A stretch of 64,000 bases of DNA from an uncultured Corynebacterium sp. (GTDB lineage Bacteria > Actinomycetota > Actinomycetes > Mycobacteriales > Mycobacteriaceae). The stretch is taken from the NCBI RefSeq assembly GCF_946222305.1, contig NZ_CAMIHZ010000006.1, forward strand, positions 17,139 through 81,138, given 5' to 3'. The notes under the pieces were generated by a model. It did not search any database and had not been told where the DNA came from. It saw nothing but the letters and a program-made list of their open reading frames with translations. Below, one piece after another: positions 3,709 through 23,901 of this stretch (positions within the stretch are counted from its first letter, which is position 1; each line of letters starts with the position of its first letter). The position numbers were made by a program, and so were the translations under genes.

Positions 3709-4595
3709 CAACCACATGGATTCCGGCAGGTCCTGCACTGTTGTTCGCGCCAGCGGATCGTCCTGAACGTTTTTCCAAAGCAGCGGACCGGTCGGACATG
3801 GTGATCCTCGACCTCGAAGATGGCTGCCGTGTGGAAAACCGCGACGATGCTCGGATGCATATCGCTGAAGCCGACCTCGATCCGGAAAGAACCATCGTTC
3901 GGGTGAACCCCGCAGCCAGCGAGGACATGCCCCACGACATCGCAGCCGTGAGCCGTACCGCATTCCGCCGCATCATGCTGCCCAAAGTGGAAAGCGCGGG
4001 TGACATTGACCAGGTCCTGCGCGAATGCGATGGCGTCACTCCCGATGACATTCGCGTGATCGCATTGATCGAAACTCCGCGCGGAGTACTTAACCTCGGG
4101 GAGATCGCAGCGCACGACAACGTGGACGCGCTGTTTTGGGGCGCCGAAGACCTTACTGCGGCATTGGGTGGAACCAGCTCACGCTACGGCGTAGATGAGG
4201 GGGCCACCCCAGGCGGAGGCATTTCCGGCAACCCCGGCGGTTACCGCGAAGTTCCCCGCCACACCCGCACCATGGTGCTGCTGCACGCCGCTGCGGCCGG
4301 CAAAGTCGCCCTCGACTCGATCCACGCCGATACCAGCGACGTGGAAGGCGCACACGCTGAAGCTGTCGATGCAGCTGCGAGCGGCTTCGCGGCAACCGTG
4401 GCCATCCACCCTGGGCTCGTACCCGCGATCCGGGAGGCCTACCGCCCCACGGAGGAACAGCTGACGTGGGCGCGCAAAGTCACCGAAGGCGCGAAAAACA
4501 ATTCCGGTGCCTTCGCCGTGGACGGCGAGATGATCGACGCTCCACTCCTACGCCAAGCCGAGATCATTGAGGCCAGGGCGGCGTCGGTGAAATAA
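3705..4595 (+). CDS. citE: CitE/HpcH-family CoA-ester lyase (citrate lyase beta-like; HMG-CoA/citramalyl-CoA lyase type)
   Basis: 296 aa with an N-terminal PADRPERF motif characteristic of the CitE family. Translationally coupled to the MaoC gene. Confidence 0.8.
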   Translation: MTTTWIPAGPALLFAPADRPERFSKAADRSDMVILDLEDGCRVENRDDARMHIAEADLDPERTIVRVNPAASEDMPHDIAAVSRTAFRRIMLPKVESAGDIDQVLRECDGVTPDDIRVIALIETPRGVLNLGEIAAHDNVDALFWGAEDLTAALGGTSSRYGVDEGATPGGGISGNPGGYREVPRHTRTMVLLHAAAAGKVALDSIHADTSDVEGAHAEAVDAAASGFAATVAIHPGLVPAIREAYRPTEEQLTWARKVTEGAKNNSGAFAVDGEMIDAPLLRQAEIIEARAASVK

Positions 4596-9437: not shown

Positions 9438-9495
9438 AAAAGGCCCGCCCGGCTAAGCTACCTTTCCAATGAAGGTACTGGCCGGCGGGCCTTTT
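9438..9495 (-). terminator. Intrinsic terminator hairpin downstream of rpsR, flanked by T-tracts on both strands
   Basis: Arms aaaaggcccgcccggc ... gccggcgggcctttt, followed by T-runs on either strand. Confidence 0.7.
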
Positions 9496-9539: not shown

Positions 9540-9788
9540 TCAGCGGCTGTGGAATGGCAGGAGAGCCATTTCACGAGCGTTCTTCACAGCGGTAGCAACC
9601 TGGCGCTGCTGCTGTGGGGTCAGACCGGTGACGCGGCGAGAGCGGATCTTGCCACGGTCAGAGATGAACTTGCGCAGGAGAGCGTAGTTCTTGTAGTCAA
9701 CCGTCTCGATGCCTTCAGCCTTGAGAGGGTTCTTCTTTGGGCGGCGGGACTGCTCCATCCGCGCCTTCTTAATGTTGTTGCGCTTCAT
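9540..9788 (-). CDS. rpsR: 30S ribosomal protein S18 (cysteine-less form)
   Basis: 82 aa; the conserved S18 core is present and the protein has no Cys. Confidence 0.9.
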
Positions 9789-9803
9789 TTCGCAGTGCTC
9801 CTT

Positions 9804-10109
9804 TTACCAGCTGGACTTGCGAACGCCTGGCAGCTCACCGCGGTGAGCCATCTGGCGAACACGGACACGGGACAGACCGAACTTACGCAGGTAACCGCGT
9901 GGACGGCCGTCAGCGGCGTCACGGTTACGAACGCGCACTGGGGAAGCGTCGCGAGGCTGACGGTTCAGCTCCCACTGTGCCTCCATGCGATCCTCGTCGG
10001 ATGTGTTCGGATTCTTGATGATCTTCTTGAGCTCAGCGCGACGCTCCGCGTAGCGGGCGACGATTTCCTTGCGCTGCTCGTTCTTCGCGATCATAGACTT
10101 CTTAGCCAT
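9804..10109 (-). CDS. rpsN: 30S ribosomal protein S14, long non-zinc (C-) form
   Basis: 101 aa; shows S14 motifs but no CxxC pairs. Confidence 0.9.
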
Positions 10110-10112
10110 AGA

Positions 10113-10277
10113 TTATCGCTCCTCGCGGAATTCGACGTGCTTGCGGACTACCGGATCGAACTTCTTAATGGTCAGACGATCTGGGTTGTTGCGCTTGTTC
10201 TTACGGGTGACATAGGTGTAACCGGTGCCAGCCGTAGACTTCAGCTTGATGATTGGACGGATATCGTTACGTGCCAT
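10113..10277 (-). CDS. rpmG: 50S ribosomal protein L33 (C- form)
   Basis: Hand-translated 54 aa [54 protein letters not shown]. It is missing from the ORF track because it is shorter than 60 aa. Confidence 0.85.
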
Positions 10278-10279
10278 GT

Positions 10280-10516
10280 TTAGATCTTCTCCCCACGGGC
10301 GCGGATCTTGGCAACGACAGACTCGATGCCGTCACGGTCAATGGTCTTCAGGCCCTTGGTGGACACGTTCAAAGTGATCGTGCGTCCTTCGGAGGGCAGG
10401 TAGAACGAGCGGCGCTGGATGTTTGGGTTCCAACGGCGGCTCGTACGGCGGTGAGAGTGGGAAACGGTCTTGCCGAACTTCGGCGTCCGTCCCGTCACCT
10501 GGCAGTATGCCGACAT
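10280..10516 (-). CDS. rpmB: 50S ribosomal protein L28 (C- form)
   Basis: 78 aa; L28 motifs; a single Cys only. Confidence 0.9.
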
Positions 10517-10924
10517 GGGTTTTCTCCTTCCACCGTTTGCAAACGTGGCTCGTCGCGGCAGCGTTCACTCGGTTAGACGGGCCGGTGAAAGCGCGCGGAG
10601 CTGCACGATGAAACGGTGATGACGTTTACTTAGACAACAGCGGGGGTAAACATTACCGCAAGGGGGTGCCGAAAACCTAATTGCTTTAAGCTTGCTGTCT
10701 CAACTAGGTTTCTGCCTTTGTTTTCGACGCCCCGCGGGCCGCCTGGCCACGAATTCAGTAGGGCGGTGATTTCCCATTGAGGGCGTGAAGAAGTAAGATT
10801 CTCCGATTGTACGTATCCTCGGCCACCGTCGAGGAGTGCTGTAATTCTAGCCCGACTCGGGCACGACCACGTTCCAACCGTGAATTGTGGACCGACCCGA
10901 TGTAGACAACCTGAGGGATTAATT
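10517..10924. promoter_or_regulatory. Divergent promoter region between the rpmB-rpmG-rpsN-rpsR and rpmE2-rpmF operons. It carries a perfect 12-bp palindrome CGTTTGCAAACG at 10535-10546 and AAACG(N7)CGTTT at 10609-10625.
   Basis: 408 bp of non-coding sequence between divergent start codons. The palindromes were read directly from the sequence. Confidence 0.5.
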
Positions 10925-11188
10925 ATGAAGAAGGATATCCACCCTGATTACCACGCAGTGGTATTCAAGGATGCGAGCACCGGACACCAGTTCCTGACTC
11001 GCTCTACCGCCACTTCTGACCGCACCGTTGAGTGGGAAGACGGCAACGAGTACCCGCTGATCGTCGTCGACGTCACCAGTGAGTCCCACCCATTCTGGAC
11101 CGGCGCACAGCGCGTTATGGATACTGCAGGCCGTGTGGAGAAGTTCCAGCGTCGCTACGGTGCAATGGCTCGTCGCAAGAAGAAGTAA
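10925..11188 (+). CDS. rpmE2: 50S ribosomal protein L31 type B (no zinc ribbon)
   Basis: [10 protein letters not shown]... with no CxxC motifs. The ATG at 10925 is preceded by GAGGGA. Confidence 0.9.
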
Positions 11189-11215
11189 GCTTAAGAGAAA
11201 GAGAAGGGTTAAACA

Positions 11216-11383
11216 ATGGCTGTTCCAAAGCGCCGCATGTCCCGCGCAAATACCCACTCCCGCCGTTCCCAGTGGAAGGCCGACAATGTCGCCCTCTCCA
11301 ACGTGAAGGTTCAGGGCCAAGAGGTTCAGATCCCACGTCGTCTGGTCAAGGCTGCACAGCTGGGTCTGATCGACCTCGACTAG
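11216..11383 (+). CDS. rpmF: 50S ribosomal protein L32 (C- form)
   Basis: Hand-translated 55 aa [55 protein letters not shown]. Shorter than the ORF-track cutoff. Confidence 0.85.
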
Positions 11384-11440
11384 TGGTCATCTAGAAGGGG
11401 AGATCATCTGAAGTTATCGACTTCTACTCTCCGAAGAGCA

Positions 11441-11473
11441 CTGCCCACCGGCTTTTCCGGTGGGCAGTTTTTT
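11441..11473 (+). terminator. Rho-independent terminator after rpmF
   Basis: ctgcccaccgg-cttttc-ccggtgggcag followed by TTTTTT. Confidence 0.85.
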
Positions 11474-11611: not shown

Positions 11612-12349
11612 GTGAGTTTTCACTTCATGCTGAAACGGGGCAAAATGGTGAGCATGAAAATTCTTGTTGCCGATGACGACCAAGCGGTTCGGGAGTCTCT
11701 TCGCCGATCGCTCATTTTCAATGGCTACACGGTGGTTCTCGCCACCGATGGTGCTGAGGCCTTAGAAATGATTGAGTCCGAACGGCCTGACTTGGCGATC
11801 CTCGATGTCATGATGCCGAAACGTGATGGTCTCGAAGTCTGCCGAGAACTGCGCAGCCACGGCGACGATGTTCCTATTTTGTTGCTCACGGCTCGAGATG
11901 CAGTTTCTGAACGTGTCGCTGGTTTAGATGCCGGTGCTGATGACTATCTGCCAAAGCCGTTCGCGCTCGAGGAATTGCTGGCTCGTACGCGGTCGCTATT
12001 CCGTCGTGCTACCCGCCCGGCCATTAACGAAACGCAGAGCAACGAGCCACTGCGCTTCGAGGATCTCACCCTCAACCCAGATACTCGCGATGTCCGTCGT
12101 GGTGAGCGCCAGATTAGCCTGACCCGAACGGAATTCGCCTTGCTGGAATTGCTGATCCGAAATCCGCGCAAGGTGTTGTCCCGTAACAATATCCTTGAGG
12201 AGGTCTGGGGTTACGATTTCCCAACCTCCGGTAATGCCCTCGAGGTTTACATCGGCTACCTGCGTAAAAAGACCGAGCAAGATGGTGAGAGCCGCTTGAT
12301 TCATACGGTTCGCGGTGTCGGCTACGTTTTGCGTGAGACTGCACCGTGA
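11612..12349 (+). CDS. mprA: OmpR-family response regulator, MprA/CgtR2-like. The true start is probably the internal ATG at 11645 or 11654.
   Basis: Receiver domain (ADDD...D...K) plus a winged-helix domain. Synteny RR-HK-HtrA protease-moaB as in Mtb mprAB-pepD-moaB2. Confidence 0.85.
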
Positions 12350-13899
12350 TTCTCCGGAGGCTTCCTGCAGAAGCCTCCCCCTGGGATAAGCGCTCCACCG
12401 AGGGGCGGGAAGACGACCTTTTCGAAGACCGAGCGCTATCCGGAGGGGCCGGAGGCAAGTCTGACCATACGAGCTGGATTCACGTCGCTCGTTTTTCGGT
12501 TCGCGGGCTCTCGCTCCGCGCCCGCCTGTCCATTCTCGTGGCGCTGATGGTTCTGTTGACCATTCTGGTCATCACCATCACCGCCTATAAGTCCGTTAGT
12601 CAGGTGCTCTACACCGAGCTGGACAAGAACTTGCAGACCCGTGCCCAGGCCGCGATTGACCGCTCGGAGCAGCCTTTTCCGGATGATTTTGACGCCCAAG
12701 GGCATTACCGACCTCGATTCCACGAGATCTCGAGCAATATGCGGATCATGATCATCCCCTCGAGCTACACGGGACAATCCACCCCTGTACGCGAGTTTGA
12801 ATCCGTCCTGCAGTCGAAGCAGATTTCCGTGATGCGGGGTGAGGAGCCCTTTAACTTCGACACGACCGATCATGAACGGATGTTCGCGGTGCGTACCGTG
12901 GACGGTCGTGTCATTGTGGTGACCCAGGATCTGGCTTTCACGAAGCAGACCTTGAATGCATTGGAACTTGTGTTGATCCTGGTTGGCGTCTCCGGTGCCT
13001 TGGGCGCGATCATTCTGAGTATCGCTATCGTCAACGCCGGGTTGCAGCCCATTGGTCGACTCCGCCGAGCAGCCGACCATGTGACAGAAACAGGTGAGCT
13101 GCGCAAGATTTCGGTGTACAGCCACGACGAGCTTAGCTCGCTTACGCAGTCTTTCAACGACATGATGAGTGCGCTCGAGGACGCTCAAACTAAGCAGCGC
13201 AACCTCGTGGCGGATGCCTCCCATGAGCTCAAGACCCCACTTACTTCGATGCGCACGAATATTGAGTTGCTTATGCAGGCATCGAAAAACAAGCACGCGA
13301 TAATCAGTGAAGCTGACCGCGCAGATATTGAGCGAGACGTTATCGCCCAGATCGAGGAAATGAGCTCCCTCATTGGTGACCTTGTGGAACTGGCCCGCGA
13401 GGAAACTCACGAGGTGCCACTCAGCAGCATCGACGTTGGCGACATTCTGCAGGGATGCATCGGACGTGTGCAGCGCCGTAGGCCGGATGTGCGTTTCGAA
13501 TTCCGGGAAACGGAATGGACTCTCGAAGGGGACAGCTTCGGCCTGAGTCGCGCTCTACTGAATCTCCTAGATAACGCCGCAAAATGGTCTCCGACGGATG
13601 GCACGGTGCGTATCGATATGATTCCTGACGGCAGGGAGCTGGAGTTACGGATATCCGATAGCGGTCCAGGCATTCCGGTGGAGGAGCGCGAGCGCGTATT
13701 CGACCGTTTCTACCGCTCCATCGGATCGCGATCGATGCCGGGATCTGGTCTCGGGCTGTCCATTGTGAAGCATATGGTGGAGCGTCATGGGGGCAGCATT
13801 CGCGCCGACGAGAGTGATGACGGTGGCACGATGATGGTTGTGCGGTTGCCTGGGGATCCCGTCATGGTGGTAGATGAGGGCGTCGAGAAAGAAAAGTGA
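12346..13899 (+). CDS. mprB: Sensor histidine kinase (HAMP-HisKA-HATPase), MprB/CgtS2-like
   Basis: H-box [14 protein letters not shown] plus N, G1 and G2 boxes, and two N-terminal TM segments. Its GTG start overlaps the regulator's stop codon. Confidence 0.85.
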
Positions 13900-14085
13900 A
13901 GCGATAGAAAGCGAGCGGCTCTGAACGTTTACTGTGAGCTTTCTGTATGCCATCGCGCTGGGTAGATTGGACTTCCAAGAGACTCCGCAGCCTGAATTGG
14001 GCTGGTCTTCACAATTTGGGGGCACAATTGGATCTATCTTCTTAGGGTGCCGACGGTGGCCCGAAAACATGGAAAGGCAATCGAA

Positions 14086-15735
14086 ATGACGACACATAAT
14101 CCCGGTGAAAACGACTTCGGAAATGCGAAGCGGGATCAAAAGAAAGGTCCTGCCGATAACCGTTCACCGCAAGGGATGTCGTCTCCGATGGGGTGGCGGC
14201 AGGACCAAGCCGAGTCGCACACGTCGCAGTTTGGGGCGATGGGCGGCCAGCCGGTCGGTGCTGCGAGTCAGGCTGAAGGCCCGGGGGCTGGACAACAGGG
14301 CGGACTGCAGGCTGGTGCTGCGCAGCCCCAGTTGAATGACTACGGTGCTGGTGCGCGATCCATGGGCCAACCGGGCCAGCCAGGCCAACTGGGCCGGCCA
14401 AGTCAATCTGCGCCAATGGGGCAACCCGGCCAGCCAGGTCAATCTGCGCCAATGGGGCAACCCGGTCGGTTAGGTCAATCTTCGCCAATGGGGCAACCCG
14501 GCCAGCAGGGCCAGGCGGGTCCCACCATGACAGGCCAGCCCGGACAATTTGGACACCCTGGCCAGGCCGGACAGTTCGCCCAGCCCGGTCAATTGGGTCA
14601 ACCCGTTCCACCGGCACCCCGTCAGCCGAAGCGTTGGTCCACCACCAGCTTGGTCGCTATGGTGCTTGCCGGGTCGCTCGTCGCCGGCGCGGCCACGGCG
14701 GTAGTGGGCAGTGAGCTCAACGGCAATGGCTTGGGCAACAGTACTGTGACTTCCTTCGACCAAGGTAAGCCCACGAGCGATACGAAGAACACCAACGGTC
14801 GCCCGCCAGCGGAAGGCAGCGTGGAAGAGGTCGCGTCCAAGGTCTTGCCCAGCGTGGTCTCCATCCAGGTGCAGACAGCTGATTCGGGTGCCGACGGTTC
14901 CGGATCCATCATTAGTAACGATGGTCTGATTGTGACGAATAATCACGTCGTTTCGGGGGCAGAGAATGGCCGAGCCAAGATCGCGGTGCAGCTGCACGAT
15001 GGCCGGGTGCTGCCTGCGGACCTCGTTGCATCAGATCCCACCACCGATGTAGCCGTCATCAAGGCTCGTGGTGCTAACGACCTGCAACCGATCAAGTTCG
15101 GCGACTCCAACAAGCTCAACGTGGGGCAGGAAGTTGTGGCGATTGGCTCTCCTTTGGGGCTGTCCTCGACGGTGACACGCGGGATCGTCTCTGCGAAAAA
15201 CCGTCCCGTTCAGGCCGGTGGTGAAAAGGGCGGCGAAGCTTCTCTGATCGACGCCATCCAGACCGACGCTGCGATTAACCCCGGTAACTCTGGTGGCGCG
15301 CTGGTCAACATGAATGGTGAGCTCGTGGGCATCCCATCGGTCATTGCCTCTCTCGGCGGTGGCGAAGGGCAGCAATCTGGATCCATCGGATTGGGTTTTG
15401 CCATCCCGGTAAACCAGGCGCAAGACATCGCCAAACAACTGGTGGAAAAGAAGAAGGTCGACCACCCCGCCATTGGTGCGCAGGTGAACACCAGCCGTTC
15501 CGCCTCCAGCCAAGGCGCTGAAATCGTGAAGGTCGAAAGTGGCAGCCCAGCGGATAAGGCCGGACTGAAATCCGGTGACGTGGTGTTGAAGGTGGATGAC
15601 CGCTTGGTTGAAGGCGGCGTGGGATTGATCGCTGCGATCCGTTCGCACCGCGTGGGGGACAAGGTCACGCTGACTGTCCTCCGCGATGGCAAGGGATCGG
15701 AGAAGCAGGTGGAGGTCACACTCGGGTCGCGGTAG
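14086..15735 (+). CDS. pepD: HtrA/PepD-like trypsin-type serine protease with a C-terminal PDZ domain and a Gln/Pro/Gly-rich repetitive N-terminus
   Basis: Catalytic-triad context TNNHVV ... D ... GNSGGAL and a PDZ domain. The preferred ATG at 14086 has a GAAAGG RBS. The longer ORF from 14047 is less likely. Confidence 0.85.
   Translation: MTTHNPGENDFGNAKRDQKKGPADNRSPQGMSSPMGWRQDQAESHTSQFGAMGGQPVGAASQAEGPGAGQQGGLQAGAAQPQLNDYGAGARSMGQPGQPGQLGRPSQSAPMGQPGQPGQSAPMGQPGRLGQSSPMGQPGQQGQAGPTMTGQPGQFGHPGQAGQFAQPGQLGQPVPPAPRQPKRWSTTSLVAMVLAGSLVAGAATAVVGSELNGNGLGNSTVTSFDQGKPTSDTKNTNGRPPAEGSVEEVASKVLPSVVSIQVQTADSGADGSGSIISNDGLIVTNNHVVSGAENGRAKIAVQLHDGRVLPADLVASDPTTDVAVIKARGANDLQPIKFGDSNKLNVGQEVVAIGSPLGLSSTVTRGIVSAKNRPVQAGGEKGGEASLIDAIQTDAAINPGNSGGALVNMNGELVGIPSVIASLGGGEGQQSGSIGLGFAIPVNQAQDIAKQLVEKKKVDHPAIGAQVNTSRSASSQGAEIVKVESGSPADKAGLKSGDVVLKVDDRLVEGGVGLIAAIRSHRVGDKVTLTVLRDGKGSEKQVEVTLGSR
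14404..14511 (+). repeat. Three tandem 36-bp repeats encoding QSAPMGQPGQPG units inside the protease N-terminal region
   Basis: caatctgcgccaatggggcaacccggccagccaggt repeated three times with minor variation. Confidence 0.8.
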
Positions 15736-21075: not shown

Positions 21076-22578
21076 GTGCCCGGTTCACTGCTTCTAATTG
21101 CTGTCGTCTGGATCGTGTTGCTCACGCCATTGGTGCTGTTTAACCGCCGACCGGTGCGCAAGACGTCCGAGGCTTTGACAGAGACCCGCCTGGTGCACTC
21201 CGGGGGCTCTGAGCTGCGCGGAAAGCGGAAGTTGCGCCCGTCGCCCGCACTGTACACCGCCGATGACAGCGACGAAGAACTTGAATTGGTCGATGCTGAA
21301 CCCGAGTATGTGCTGCTGGACGACGAGGGCACTGAGTCCACGCAGCCTGCATCGGGCAAAGGTCATACTGCGGGCAAGAGTGTAGCCGTCGCGCGCCAGG
21401 GCAAGCGTGCGGTCGACGTTACTGGCGCGGAGGTCGTCGATGGCGAGCTGGTTGAGGATGAGGAACTTGACGCCAAGTCCAGCGACAACGCCTCCGTTCG
21501 GGAAGCTGAAGAGCGCGCCGATGAAGCCGTTGTCGATTCCGACATCGTCGACCAGGAGGCTGGCGACGAAGATGCCGACAGCGCCGCTGTAGAGGCCACC
21601 TTGACTGGTGATACCTCGCCTGCAGATGCCAACTCGGATGAAGACACGACCTCCGAGGACATTAGTGATGAGCCCGCCGAAACCGGCATGGCACACAAGG
21701 TGGATGCCAGCTCCTACAAGTCCCAGGACGAGACCGACACCGGCGAATTCGAACCAGTCGCAGAAGAAGATGTCGTTGCTGCGCTGAAGCGCAAGAAGGG
21801 CTCCACCAAGCTTTCGAAGAAGCGCTTCTCGAAGTCGAAGGACACCCGCACCGGCGATGCCAAGGCTTACGGGATGGAAAAAACTGACGAGGCTAACACA
21901 TCCGACGTGCACGACGATGCTGCACAGGAAACCCCCAAGCCCGTGGAGGTTCCGATTGGGGTTTTGCGTGGCGTCGATTATGACGATTCCCGCGGCCGCG
22001 AAGACCACGTCCGCGAACTAGCCAATGTAGGCACCGCCCGTCCAGTAGAGAATCTCTACGAATCGATGGAACTGTCCGAGGACGACATGAACTACATCGC
22101 AGCCCGCCGGGGCCGCGGTGTCTACGACCCCGTCGCTAGTGCCGAAGCCAACCGTCGCCGCCAGCAGCGCCGTAAGCACGTCCTGCTGGGCATGGTTGCT
22201 CTGCTGATGCTCTCCCTTGCCTTCGCGATCTGGCGTGGCGGCGCCCTGTGGTTGGCGCCCGTCCTCATGACCGGCCTGACCATCTTCTACTTGGTAGCTC
22301 TGCGCAAGAACGCTATCGAGGAGGCCAAGCTGCGCCGCCGTCGCCTGGCCCGCATGCGCCGTGCGCGACTGGGCGTGCGCAACACCGAGGACCGCGAACT
22401 GGGTGTGATCCCGGAGCGTTTGATGCGCCCCGGTGCCGTCATCATCGAGCCCGATGAGGCGGATGTAGAGCTGCACAACCTCGCTATCGTCGACAGCCAC
22501 GAGTTCTTCCACGACGATGATCACGACCGTGAATATCACGACCGTGACTACTACGACGACCACATCCGCGCGATCTAA
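21076..22578 (+). CDS. Hypothetical membrane protein with a long acidic disordered region and a His/Asp-rich C-terminal tail
   Basis: N-terminal TM helix, ~300 aa rich in D/E, a TM pair near residue 360-400, and the C-terminal tail HEFFHDDDHDREYHDRDYYDDH. Confidence 0.6.
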   Translation: MPGSLLLIAVVWIVLLTPLVLFNRRPVRKTSEALTETRLVHSGGSELRGKRKLRPSPALYTADDSDEELELVDAEPEYVLLDDEGTESTQPASGKGHTAGKSVAVARQGKRAVDVTGAEVVDGELVEDEELDAKSSDNASVREAEERADEAVVDSDIVDQEAGDEDADSAAVEATLTGDTSPADANSDEDTTSEDISDEPAETGMAHKVDASSYKSQDETDTGEFEPVAEEDVVAALKRKKGSTKLSKKRFSKSKDTRTGDAKAYGMEKTDEANTSDVHDDAAQETPKPVEVPIGVLRGVDYDDSRGREDHVRELANVGTARPVENLYESMELSEDDMNYIAARRGRGVYDPVASAEANRRRQQRRKHVLLGMVALLMLSLAFAIWRGGALWLAPVLMTGLTIFYLVALRKNAIEEAKLRRRRLARMRRARLGVRNTEDRELGVIPERLMRPGAVIIEPDEADVELHNLAIVDSHEFFHDDDHDREYHDRDYYDDHIRAI

Positions 22579-23061: not shown

Positions 23062-23901
23062 GTGGAGTGCGACAAGGTACGCGCAGCGCTTTCTGCGCGG
23101 CTGGATGGCGAGCAGACCGACCTTCCCGATGAGGTCATCGATACCCACTTGGAAGTCTGCGAGGACTGCCAGCGCTGGTACACAACCGTGACGGCACTCG
23201 GCCGATCGCTGTCCATTGGCCCCATCGATTCGGCGCCCGACCCTGCAAAATCTGCTTCCGATCCAACTCAGATCACCGAACGAGTTCTCGCCGCCGCAGA
23301 CAGCATGCCGGTTGTTGCCTCGCGCGTTTCCAGCCGGCAGCTACCCATGGCGATCGCACGCATTGTGCTGATTCTTGTTGCCTTGGTGTACCTCAGCTGG
23401 GCGGGGGTGCTGCTGTTTGCCACTCCTTACGACTCGGCCTCTTTGGATACCGACGCCAACGGCCCCCTCATCACCAGGCTCATCATGGATGCCGCAGTCG
23501 GCAAGTTCGCTTTGGCGGTGGGATTGGCATGGTCGGCGGTCCGGCCCAAGGTTACTAGTGCGGTGCTGCCGATCTATCTTGCGCATTGGGCCTTTGGCGC
23601 GGGCTTTGCTACCCGAGAGGTAGTGATGGGATTCGTGGAATCCACTGGTGGACGCGGCTTTTTCGCAAACCCACTGTGGGGACTGATCGTCCACCTGTGT
23701 GCCGTCCTCGCTTTGCTGACGTGCTGGGTGGGGCGCAACCACATGTTCACACCCCTCAAACAGTCTTGGCGGGCGCTTGCTGCCCGTCCAGTGAATTTCT
23801 CCCCGGCGGATATGGATGAACACTCCACGTACCGTTTGGGCGACAAGAACGGTCACGGTTTAGGCGACCGAAAGAGCAACGCGAGCGACTCGGAAGAGTA
23901 A
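23062..23901 (+). CDS. zf-HC2 (anti-sigma-factor-like zinc finger) domain fused to a multi-TM membrane domain
   Basis: N-terminal H-x3-C-x2-C (THLEVCEDCQ) preceded by a CDKVRAAL helix, which is typical of zf-HC2 anti-sigma factors. About 4 predicted TM helices. GTG start. Confidence 0.55.
   Translation: MECDKVRAALSARLDGEQTDLPDEVIDTHLEVCEDCQRWYTTVTALGRSLSIGPIDSAPDPAKSASDPTQITERVLAAADSMPVVASRVSSRQLPMAIARIVLILVALVYLSWAGVLLFATPYDSASLDTDANGPLITRLIMDAAVGKFALAVGLAWSAVRPKVTSAVLPIYLAHWAFGAGFATREVVMGFVESTGGRGFFANPLWGLIVHLCAVLALLTCWVGRNHMFTPLKQSWRALAARPVNFSPADMDEHSTYRLGDKNGHGLGDRKSNASDSEE

Follow-up and report, generated by a model that had tools for sequence, protein, structure and literature searches.

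Introduction

The closest described counterpart of the locus considered here is the alternative ribosomal protein (AltRP) operon of mycobacteria, rpmB2-rpmG1-rpsN2-rpsR2, together with rpmE2, which encodes ribosomal proteins devoid of the CxxC pairs of a zinc ribbon (C- forms) and coexists with paralogues that retain them (C+ forms; for L28 the C+ loci L059-L086, among the matches listed). Loci of this type in mycobacteria, Nocardia and Rhodococcus have one or two Zur boxes in front of rpmB2, and their two operons are separated by a COG0523 gene. Mycobacterial, Streptomyces and some other Zur regulons include ribosomal protein genes; no such genes belong to the published Zur regulons of Corynebacterium glutamicum (delta-zur microarray) and C. 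diphtheriae, nor were any recovered in a Zur matrix scan of eight Corynebacterium genomes, including those of C. jeikeium, C. urealyticum and C. kroppenstedtii. Here we describe the corresponding locus in a 64-kb stretch of contig NZ_CAMIHZ010000006.1 from an uncultured Corynebacterium sp. (the window), in which the operon for L28, L33, S14 and S18 (rpmB-rpmG-rpsN-rpsR) diverges from that for L31 and L32 (rpmE-rpmF). With a probability of about 0.87 this is the standard Corynebacterium locus, consisting of two divergent constitutive operons that most likely supply the cell's only L28, L33, S14, S18, L31 and L32, all of them C- forms.

The best studied locus of this kind within the genus is that of C. 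glutamicum ATCC 13032, where the same gene order and divergence are found in cg0988-cg0991 (rpsR-rpsN-rpmG-rpmB) and cg0994-cg0995 (rpmE-rpmF), followed by cg0996-cg0998 (cgtRS2, pepD-like). Also shared with the window are the L31 leader (ACUCGGGCACGA...CCUGAGGGA), the rpmB promoter, the mRNA start GCUGUUGUC and terminators after both operons, which in C. glutamicum have been mapped after cg0988 and cg0995 (PMC3890552 supplement). In contrast to the window, C. glutamicum carries the extra small genes cg0992 and cg0993 between the operons, and its rpmB 5' untranslated region (5'UTR) has 111 nt instead of 125 nt, with a UCAC loop in the apical part where the window has a GCCCGUCUAACC loop.

Two families of leader RNA are known in front of actinobacterial L31 genes. 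The L31-Corynebacteriaceae leader (RF03129) has been described upstream of rpmE-rpmF in Corynebacteriaceae, with none of 100 regulated L31 genes encoding a CXXC motif (Eckert & Weinberg 2020, PMC7247131), and its ligand is predicted to be L31 (PMC7247131). The L31-Actinobacteria leader is associated with a CXXC L31 in 2052 of 2052 cases and never occurs in the same organism as RF03129 (PMC7247131).

Relation of the locus to the mycobacterial alternative set

The preliminary description of this DNA had equated the six genes with the mycobacterial C- alternative set, and this equation is upheld by structural matches as well as by synteny with loci that carry Zur boxes. The nearest solved structures of S14, L28 and L31 are chains of the M. 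smegmatis C- ribosome (6DZI, 6DZK, 6DZP and 9E16; E values of 1e-35 to 1e-42), as against E values of about 1e-12 to 1e-13 for the primary C+ mycobacterial chains. In a sample of at least 80 genome loci retrieved with an L28 query, the arrangement rpmB-rpmG-rpsN-rpsR plus divergent rpmE(-rpmF) was met again in Corynebacterium, Dietzia, Gordonia, Nocardia, Rhodococcus and Mycobacterium, and an MprA orthologue follows rpmF also in Rhodococcus aetherivorans and Prescottella. Since both position and sequence are shared with the Rhodococcus, Prescottella and Nocardia loci, the locus is orthologous to loci under Zur control.

With the mycobacterial AltRP operon the window has in common the orthologous proteins, the four-gene order, the divergent rpmE2 and a relic cysteine at position 5 of L28. 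It differs in having neither the Zur boxes nor the intervening COG0523 gene, and in carrying leaders of the ribosomal protein type, the one in front of rpmB being a candidate, which are a point of contrast with AltRP loci of the mycobacterial type.

A separate observation concerns Mycolicibacterium senegalense (L024), in which a cobalamin riboswitch (RF00174, 38.4 bits) occupies positions 3981-4077, directly downstream of the Zur-regulated rpmB2-rpmG-rpsN-rpsR operon.

Zur boxes and COG0523 genes

The Zur box was defined as a 21-bp palindrome with the core TGAAAATGATTTTCA that overlaps the promoter. In Nocardia, Mycobacterium, Rhodococcus, Prescottella and Gordonia, one or two palindromes with at most three mismatches to TGAAAATNATTTTCA are located at about -35 and about -90 of rpmB. 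A symmetrised 21-bp matrix was built from 31 boxes that precede the C- rpmB genes of Nocardia, Mycobacterium, Rhodococcus and Gordonia; these training boxes scored 17.4-31.4 bits, and four C. glutamicum Zur boxes verified by electrophoretic mobility shift assay (Schroeder et al. 2010, PMC2823685) scored 17.2-26.1 bits with the same matrix.

A scan of 10517-10924 for Zur boxes had been proposed in the preliminary description, and its outcome is clearly negative, the best site reaching -5.1 bits as compared with at least 17 bits in the controls. With this matrix no Zur box was found in the whole window (best site, 7.8 bits) or in the Corynebacterium/Dietzia loci (best site, 2.4 bits). A second matrix, derived solely from the C. 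glutamicum boxes, gave at best 5.0 bits in the intergenic region versus self-scores of at least 21.8, and a search of the window by mismatch count returned no match. Also, Nocardia (L014) and Mycobacterium (L022) have a COG0523 gene with a GCVSC motif in the interval from rpmB2 to rpmE2, of which there is no counterpart in the 408-bp spacer separating rpmB and rpmE in the window. The Zur apparatus is missing from this locus.

A palindrome in C. riegelii (L025), TGGCAATCATTTGCG, located at -43 and having four mismatches, was considered as a degenerate Zur box and rejected: its score is only 0.4 bits, and it belongs to the 3' strand of the helix described below for the rpmB leader.

These results bear directly on the explanation that the locus is a Zur-repressed zinc-starvation set as in mycobacteria, switched on only when zinc is scarce, with C+ paralogues elsewhere in the genome serving zinc-replete cells. 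The orthology of the proteins to the mycobacterial alternative ribosomal proteins and a position equivalent to that of the Zur-box loci of Rhodococcus and Nocardia are what would be expected in that case. However, the Zur scores fall far below those of the controls, verified corynebacterial boxes included, the COG0523 gene is absent, and rpmE is preceded by a ribosomal protein leader. The lack of ribosomal protein genes in corynebacterial Zur regulons, the transcription of the orthologous C. glutamicum operons in exponential phase and the empty canonical slots of S14 and S18 in other corynebacteria point in the same direction, and Zur repression of this locus is regarded as very improbable.

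Expression and copy number of the C- genes

The preliminary description had left two readings side by side, and whether the genes are sole copies or ALTERNATIVES was addressed with genus-level evidence, 64 kb of this genome having been seen. All the indirect evidence favours sole housekeeping copies, while Zur-repressed alternatives are disfavoured by the missing Zur box and COG0523 gene and by the S14 and S18 slots of relatives.

In C. glutamicum, the transcription start sites (TSSs) of rpmB and rpmE were mapped in exponentially growing cells, with operons assigned as cg0988-cg0992 and cg0994-cg0995 (PMC3890552 supplement). Transcripts of rpmG and rpmE of this species fall with the bulk of ribosomal protein genes under serine hydroxamate, that is, upon amino acid starvation. 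The places in which C+ genes would be sought also appear to be vacant. The C. glutamicum rplN-rplX-rplE operon ends at a terminator, and rpsH is transcribed from a separate TSS with a 235-nt UTR; the locus tags of rplI, ssb and rpsF are consecutive and therefore leave no room for rpsR, and those of infA (cg0651) and rpsM (cg0652) are consecutive as well. In six Corynebacterium genomes or metagenome-assembled genomes (MAGs) with an initiation factor IF-1 of the C. frankenforstense type (L207-L212), rpsH is preceded by divergent non-ribosomal genes (2066-2482), no S14 of either type was detected by tblastn within 10 kb on either side of infA, and the 195-nt spacer between infA and rpsM (10220-10413) contains no open reading frame (ORF) for L36 (rpmJ). 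The empty canonical slots of C+ L36 and S14 suggest that ribosomal proteins with zinc ribbons have been lost throughout the genus. Since the cell cannot do without S14 and S18, the rpmB operon, in which L28 and L33 are co-transcribed with them, must be constitutive.

Extrapolating by homology from C. glutamicum and further corynebacteria, we infer that constitutive expression and sole-copy status apply to the present organism too; protein binding to both leaders of the locus is likewise presumed. Several points weigh against this conclusion. The organism is known only as MAGs or contigs, and genus-level data stand in for its genome. The direct evidence on slots concerns S14, S18 and L36 of relatives. 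Expression is extrapolated from C. glutamicum, whose L28 is about 80-88% identical, and a zinc response may be mediated by some regulator besides Zur, or by the leaders. A search with the type-Z S14 of M. tuberculosis yielded no protein named Corynebacterium among the best 120 of 3601 matches, which is weak evidence. In the literature, no paper was found to say outright that C- forms are the only ones in corynebacteria, the case being pieced together from papers on Zur regulons, the stringent response and differential RNA sequencing (dRNA-seq).

A mixed case was also considered, in which the locus is constitutive and is the only source of S14, S18 and L31, but one or more C+ paralogues of, for example, L28, L33, L32 or L36 persist elsewhere, so that the ribosome would not be wholly zinc-free. 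L36 is not encoded in the locus, only 64 kb of the genome were in view, and the slots examined in relatives are those of S14, S18 and L36. Nevertheless, the six Corynebacterium loci have no L36 gene in its usual place next to infA, and cg0651 and cg0652 are consecutive, which suggests a wholesale loss of C+ forms in the genus. No Corynebacterium appears among the C+ L28 loci listed, a point that goes in the same sense although the list, taken by itself, is uninformative. On balance, the mixed case is considered unlikely.

If the genes are the sole housekeeping copies, as we favour, the history of the locus may be outlined as follows. The ancestral locus would have been a Zur-repressed backup for zinc starvation, as in Nocardia, Rhodococcus, Gordonia and Mycobacterium; the Corynebacterium/Dietzia lineage would then have lost the Zur operators together with the intervening COG0523 zinc-chaperone gene, and the C- genes would have become the housekeeping set. 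In the present arrangement, a promoter of the sigma-A type would drive each operon, rpmE-rpmF being controlled by the L31-Corynebacteriaceae leader with L31 as its presumed ligand, and the rpmB operon by its structured 125-nt 5'UTR through feedback by one of the encoded proteins.

Corynebacterial ribosomes built from forms without zinc ribbons would hold no ribosomal zinc store and would not undergo the C+/C- switch of zinc-starved mycobacteria, which is of relevance to zinc physiology and to nutritional immunity in skin- and host-associated corynebacteria. The comparison also points to regulatory turnover at one orthologous locus of the Mycobacteriales, with Zur boxes and COG0523 genes in Nocardia, Rhodococcus, Gordonia and Mycobacterium versus a conserved promoter and structured leaders in Corynebacterium and Dietzia. 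If the rpmB 5'UTR is indeed a ribosomal protein leader that arose with the loss of Zur control, this would be a documented swap, at a single locus, of metal-sensing repression for autogenous feedback. A housekeeping C- locus with a known Rfam leader is already known and already annotated biology; the one possibly new item is the structure in the rpmB 5'UTR, which is common to Corynebacterium and Dietzia and coincides with the loss of the Zur boxes.

The L31 leader and the rpmE-rpmF promoter

The window matches the RF03129 model over its full length (Table 1) and fully conforms to the described context of the family, that is, the 5'UTR of rpmE-rpmF in a Corynebacterium with a non-CXXC L31, with nothing notably different. 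The 3' tail of the leader contains the rpmE Shine-Dalgarno sequence GAGGGA, and 6 nt separate the end of the match from the rpmE ATG. Folding of the leader region as a single sequence is unremarkable (z = +0.38). Five of six other Corynebacterium loci carry RF03129, whereas no locus of Dietzia, Nocardia, Mycobacterium, Rhodococcus or Gordonia does. As RF03129 accompanies only non-CXXC L31 and the two L31 leaders are mutually exclusive, their distribution indirectly indicates that corynebacteria have no C+ L31. A role for zinc in L31 leaders was judged unlikely, though possible, by Eckert & Weinberg (PMC7247131).

The sole Corynebacterium locus examined that is without RF03129, even at E <= 1, is that of C. 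parakroppenstedtii (L008, about 2425-2560, upstream of rpmE). Its intergenic region is longer (576 bp), and the 9-mer and the helix of the rpmB leader are kept.

In Dietzia cinnamea and a Dietzia sp. (L011 and L012), the two operons are directly adjacent, with neither a Zur box nor a COG0523 gene, and the rpmB promoter, 9-mer and helix are as in Corynebacterium; no RF03129 leader was detected there at threshold. Because Dietzia lacks the Zur box and yet has no RF03129, the loss of Zur control may predate the L31 leader.

The promoters of the window were assigned by homology to the start sites mapped in C. glutamicum, where the rpmE TSS lies 108 nt upstream of rpmE and is preceded by the -10 element TAAGGT (PMC3890552 supplement). 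A scan of the intergenic region with a generic sigma-70 consensus found no promoter, and the -10 proposed for rpmE-rpmF by this analogy is weak.

The rpmB promoter and 5'UTR

All Corynebacterium and Dietzia loci have a common arrangement in front of rpmB, (G)ATTAGG - N17-19 - TAnnnT - 8 nt - GCTGTTGTC. The main rpmB TSS of C. glutamicum, as mapped by dRNA-seq, is the first G of GCUGUUGUC, with the -10 element TAAACT located 8 nt away (Pfeifer-Sancar et al. 2013, PMC3890552 supplement). This 9-mer is present in one copy in each of the Corynebacterium/Dietzia loci (15 of 15) and in none of 71 other loci. It was also found 135-160 nt upstream of rpmB in 22 further metagenome loci (e.g., L087, L089, L137 and L150), the other 98 of the 120 metagenome matches being presumably due to chance. 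Downstream of it, the 5'UTR is conserved upstream of position 3001 in L007-L012, L020, L025 and L026.

The 5'UTR is closed by a helix in which (A/U)CGCC, starting at about +23, pairs with a ...GGCG segment just upstream of the Shine-Dalgarno sequence; in the window the two strands are CACCGUUU and AAACGGUG. The helix is present in 17 of 17 independent minimum free energy (MFE) folds, where it encloses a long irregular stem, and in each lineage no more than 1-4 nt lie between its end and the Shine-Dalgarno sequence. Apical loops are often CCUCAC in main-lineage corynebacteria, or GCCCGUCUAACC in the jeikeium/resistens group to which the window belongs. Among 16 lineages with one representative each, cognate strands pair with a mean energy of -24.7 kcal/mol versus -17.9 +/- 0.8 kcal/mol for permuted strands (0 of 20000 permutations as low), a result that stays when the conserved core is omitted, and shuffling of the 3' strand gives z values of -1.5 to -4.7. 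In a fixed-register count over 19 distinct sequences, 83.6% of the cells are paired and all 19 sequences form the first five pairs, with GC/AU, CG/UA, CG/UA and CG/GC/UA/UG as the pair types at the start of the helix. Compensatory changes affect seven of the eight pairs, and the covariation value is 0.452; shuffles give 0.189, with none of 500 reaching the observed value, and slid controls give 0.08-0.23. The alignment used for this purpose consists of the joined strands, with the register fixed by sequence anchors of our choice.

On these comparative grounds, the rpmB 5'UTR contains a conserved structure, supported by covariation, beside the ribosome-binding site of a ribosomal protein operon, and the position of the closing helix right next to that site suggests feedback by an encoded protein. 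It is put forward as a candidate ribosomal protein leader, possibly a new one. Rfam 15 gave no match on the rpmB-leader strand of the window, nor for seven further loci, at thresholds as permissive as E <= 1-5. In our estimation there is an even chance that this is an undescribed leader specific to Corynebacterium and Dietzia, which would have arisen, along with the L31 leader, as Zur control was lost and the zinc-starvation backup became the only source of S14, S18, L28 and L33.

The main competing explanation is that the helix is a 5' stem that stabilises the mRNA, or an RNase III processing site, and that the 9-mer at +1 is an element of the promoter or of the initially transcribed region acting at the DNA level. 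The position of the 9-mer exactly at the TSS accords with this, as does the folding energy of the window 5'UTR, which is not exceptional (z = -1.19). RNAalifold, run on MAFFT alignments of the 5'UTR, likewise returned no consensus structure; these sequence-based alignments did not place the variable centre and the two classes of 3' end correctly. In contrast, covariation of the helix, the short distance (1-4 nt) that all lineages keep between its end and the Shine-Dalgarno sequence, and the presence downstream of genes for four rRNA-binding proteins are more readily understood in terms of a leader. A stabilising or processing stem is held to be a tentative explanation, at somewhat below even odds.

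In Escherichia coli, the rpmB-rpmG operon is repressed by L28. This operon, known to be autogenously controlled (Aseev et al. 2016, cited in PMC7247131), likewise starts with rpmB-rpmG, and its autoregulation is a further point in favour of a regulatory leader over a stem serving stability or processing; a structured 5'UTR by the ribosome-binding site would suit such feedback in corynebacteria. Unlike the E. coli operon, the corynebacterial one also encodes S14 and S18, making any of the four proteins a possible ligand, and no similarity in sequence or structure between the two regulatory regions is to be expected. If the rpmB 5'UTR does bind a protein, it would be a new leader, possibly one for a ligand (L28, L33, S14 or S18) with few or no known leaders.

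Genes and features of the locus

The six genes were found at the places and on the strands given for them in the preliminary description, their ORFs matching the coordinates and all six proteins exceeding curated NCBIfam and Pfam cut-offs (Table 1). For L31, the model exceeded is the type B exception model NF002462, which has a cut-off of 86 bits. A longer rpmE ORF starting at 10880 corresponds to an upstream GTG extension. L33 and L32 had been reported as missing from the ORF list; both genes are real and are ordinary ORFs of 54 and 55 codons, missed only under a 60-aa cut-off.

Table 1. Positions of genes, signals and RNA elements in and around the C- ribosomal protein locus of the window.
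Feature	Position	Strand	Remarks
Intrinsic terminator downstream of rpsR, hairpin and UUUUG	9438..9493	-	Fold of -40 kcal/mol, z = -6.2 vs 200 shuffles
rpsR, bS18, C- form, 82 aa	9540..9788	-	No Cys; TIGR00165 78.3 bits, PF01084 87.8 bits
rpsN, uS14, long C- form, 101 aa	9804..10109	-	No Cys; NF006477 147.8 bits
rpmG, bL33, C- form, 54 aa	10113..10277	-	No Cys; NF001860 86.1 bits, PF00471 63.9 bits
rpmB, bL28, C- form, 78 aa	10280..10516	-	Single relic Cys5; TIGR00009 84.5 bits
5'UTR of rpmB-rpmG-rpsN-rpsR, 125 nt, candidate leader	10517..10641	-	Starts with the conserved 9-mer GCUGUUGUC (10633-10641)
Shine-Dalgarno sequence of rpmB, GAAGGAG	10524-10530	-	
Closing helix, 3' strand AAACGGUG	10531..10538	-	Ends 1 nt before the Shine-Dalgarno sequence
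Closing helix, 5' strand CACCGUUU	10611..10618	-	Fixed-register covariation
Putative -10 of the rpmB promoter, TAATGT	10650..10655	-	Assigned by homology
-35-like element of the rpmB promoter, TTAGGT	10675-10680	-	
Possible -10 of the rpmE-rpmF promoter, TAAGAT (weak)	10794..10799	+	By analogy with C. glutamicum -10 TAAGGT
L31-Corynebacteriaceae leader, RF03129	10855..10918	+	57.5 bits vs gathering 36, E = 5e-8, model 1-64 of 64
rpmE, bL31 type B (C-), 87 aa	10925..11188	+	No Cys; NF002462 142.7 bits
rpmF, bL32, C- form, 55 aa	11216..11383	+	No Cys; TIGR01031 33.8 bits, PF01783 40.1 bits
Intrinsic terminator of rpmE-rpmF	11440..11468	+	12-bp stem, 9 GC pairs, then T-run
MprA-like response regulator	11612-12349		After rpmF
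MprB-like HAMP histidine kinase	12346-13899		After the MprA-like gene
PepD/HtrA-like protease with PDZ domain	14047-15735		After the MprB-like gene

A direct count of cysteines confirmed that none of the six proteins has a CxxC pair. Five of them are cysteine-less in the strict sense, as had been said of the whole set, while L28 keeps one cysteine (C5). The C+ L28 proteins of other Mycobacteriales loci have four, at positions 5, 8, 51/52 and 54/55, of which Cys5 alone is retained in every C- L28 examined; judged from this pattern, C5 is the relic first cysteine of an ancestral zinc ribbon. The set had also been called complete, which is correct for the six families present and slightly overstated in that L36, the seventh family with C+ and C- forms, is not encoded in the locus. 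No paralogues of the six proteins were found by tblastn elsewhere in the 64-kb window.

The six genes show a strong codon bias of the highly expressed type, with an effective number of codons (Nc) of 35.7 as compared with 46.8 in 19 neighbouring genes, and with AAG used in 100% and CGY in 96% of cases.

Genomic neighbourhood and relatives

The same architecture was found in all of the more than 30 Corynebacterium loci compared. C. resistens DSM 45100 has the very same S14 protein as the window, and the L28 of the window groups with C. auriscanis, the best genome match of L28 among the matches listed being C. falsenii (95%). To judge from these proteins, C. resistens and C. auriscanis are near relatives of the organism. 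Many MAGs share an identical L28 protein.

On the rpsR side, the locus is flanked by genes for a biotin carboxylase, an acyl-CoA dehydrogenase and others, followed by an AEC transporter and an RDD protein. On the rpmF side, the MprA/MprB-like two-component system and the PepD-like protease are followed by MoaB, MscL, 5-FTHF cyclo-ligase, GalU, MoeA, RimJ and others, and then by Pmt and RsmI. The neighbourhood as a whole matches the Rv0973c-Rv1003 region of M. tuberculosis, where rpmF (Rv0979A) likewise precedes mprAB and the order is rpmF-mprA-mprB-pepD, as in the window. A scan of the whole 64 kb at Rfam gathering thresholds detected no tRNA, rRNA or other RNA family besides the L31 leader.

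Three minor observations concern other proteins encoded in the window. The PepD/HtrA-like protease has a Gly/Pro-rich N-terminal stretch that gives rise to a weak match to the Pfam Collagen family. An ORF of 500 aa at 21076-22578 has no Pfam match at E <= 1e-5, and an ORF of 279 aa at 23062-23901 carries an N-terminal zf-HC2 zinc finger of the anti-sigma-factor type.

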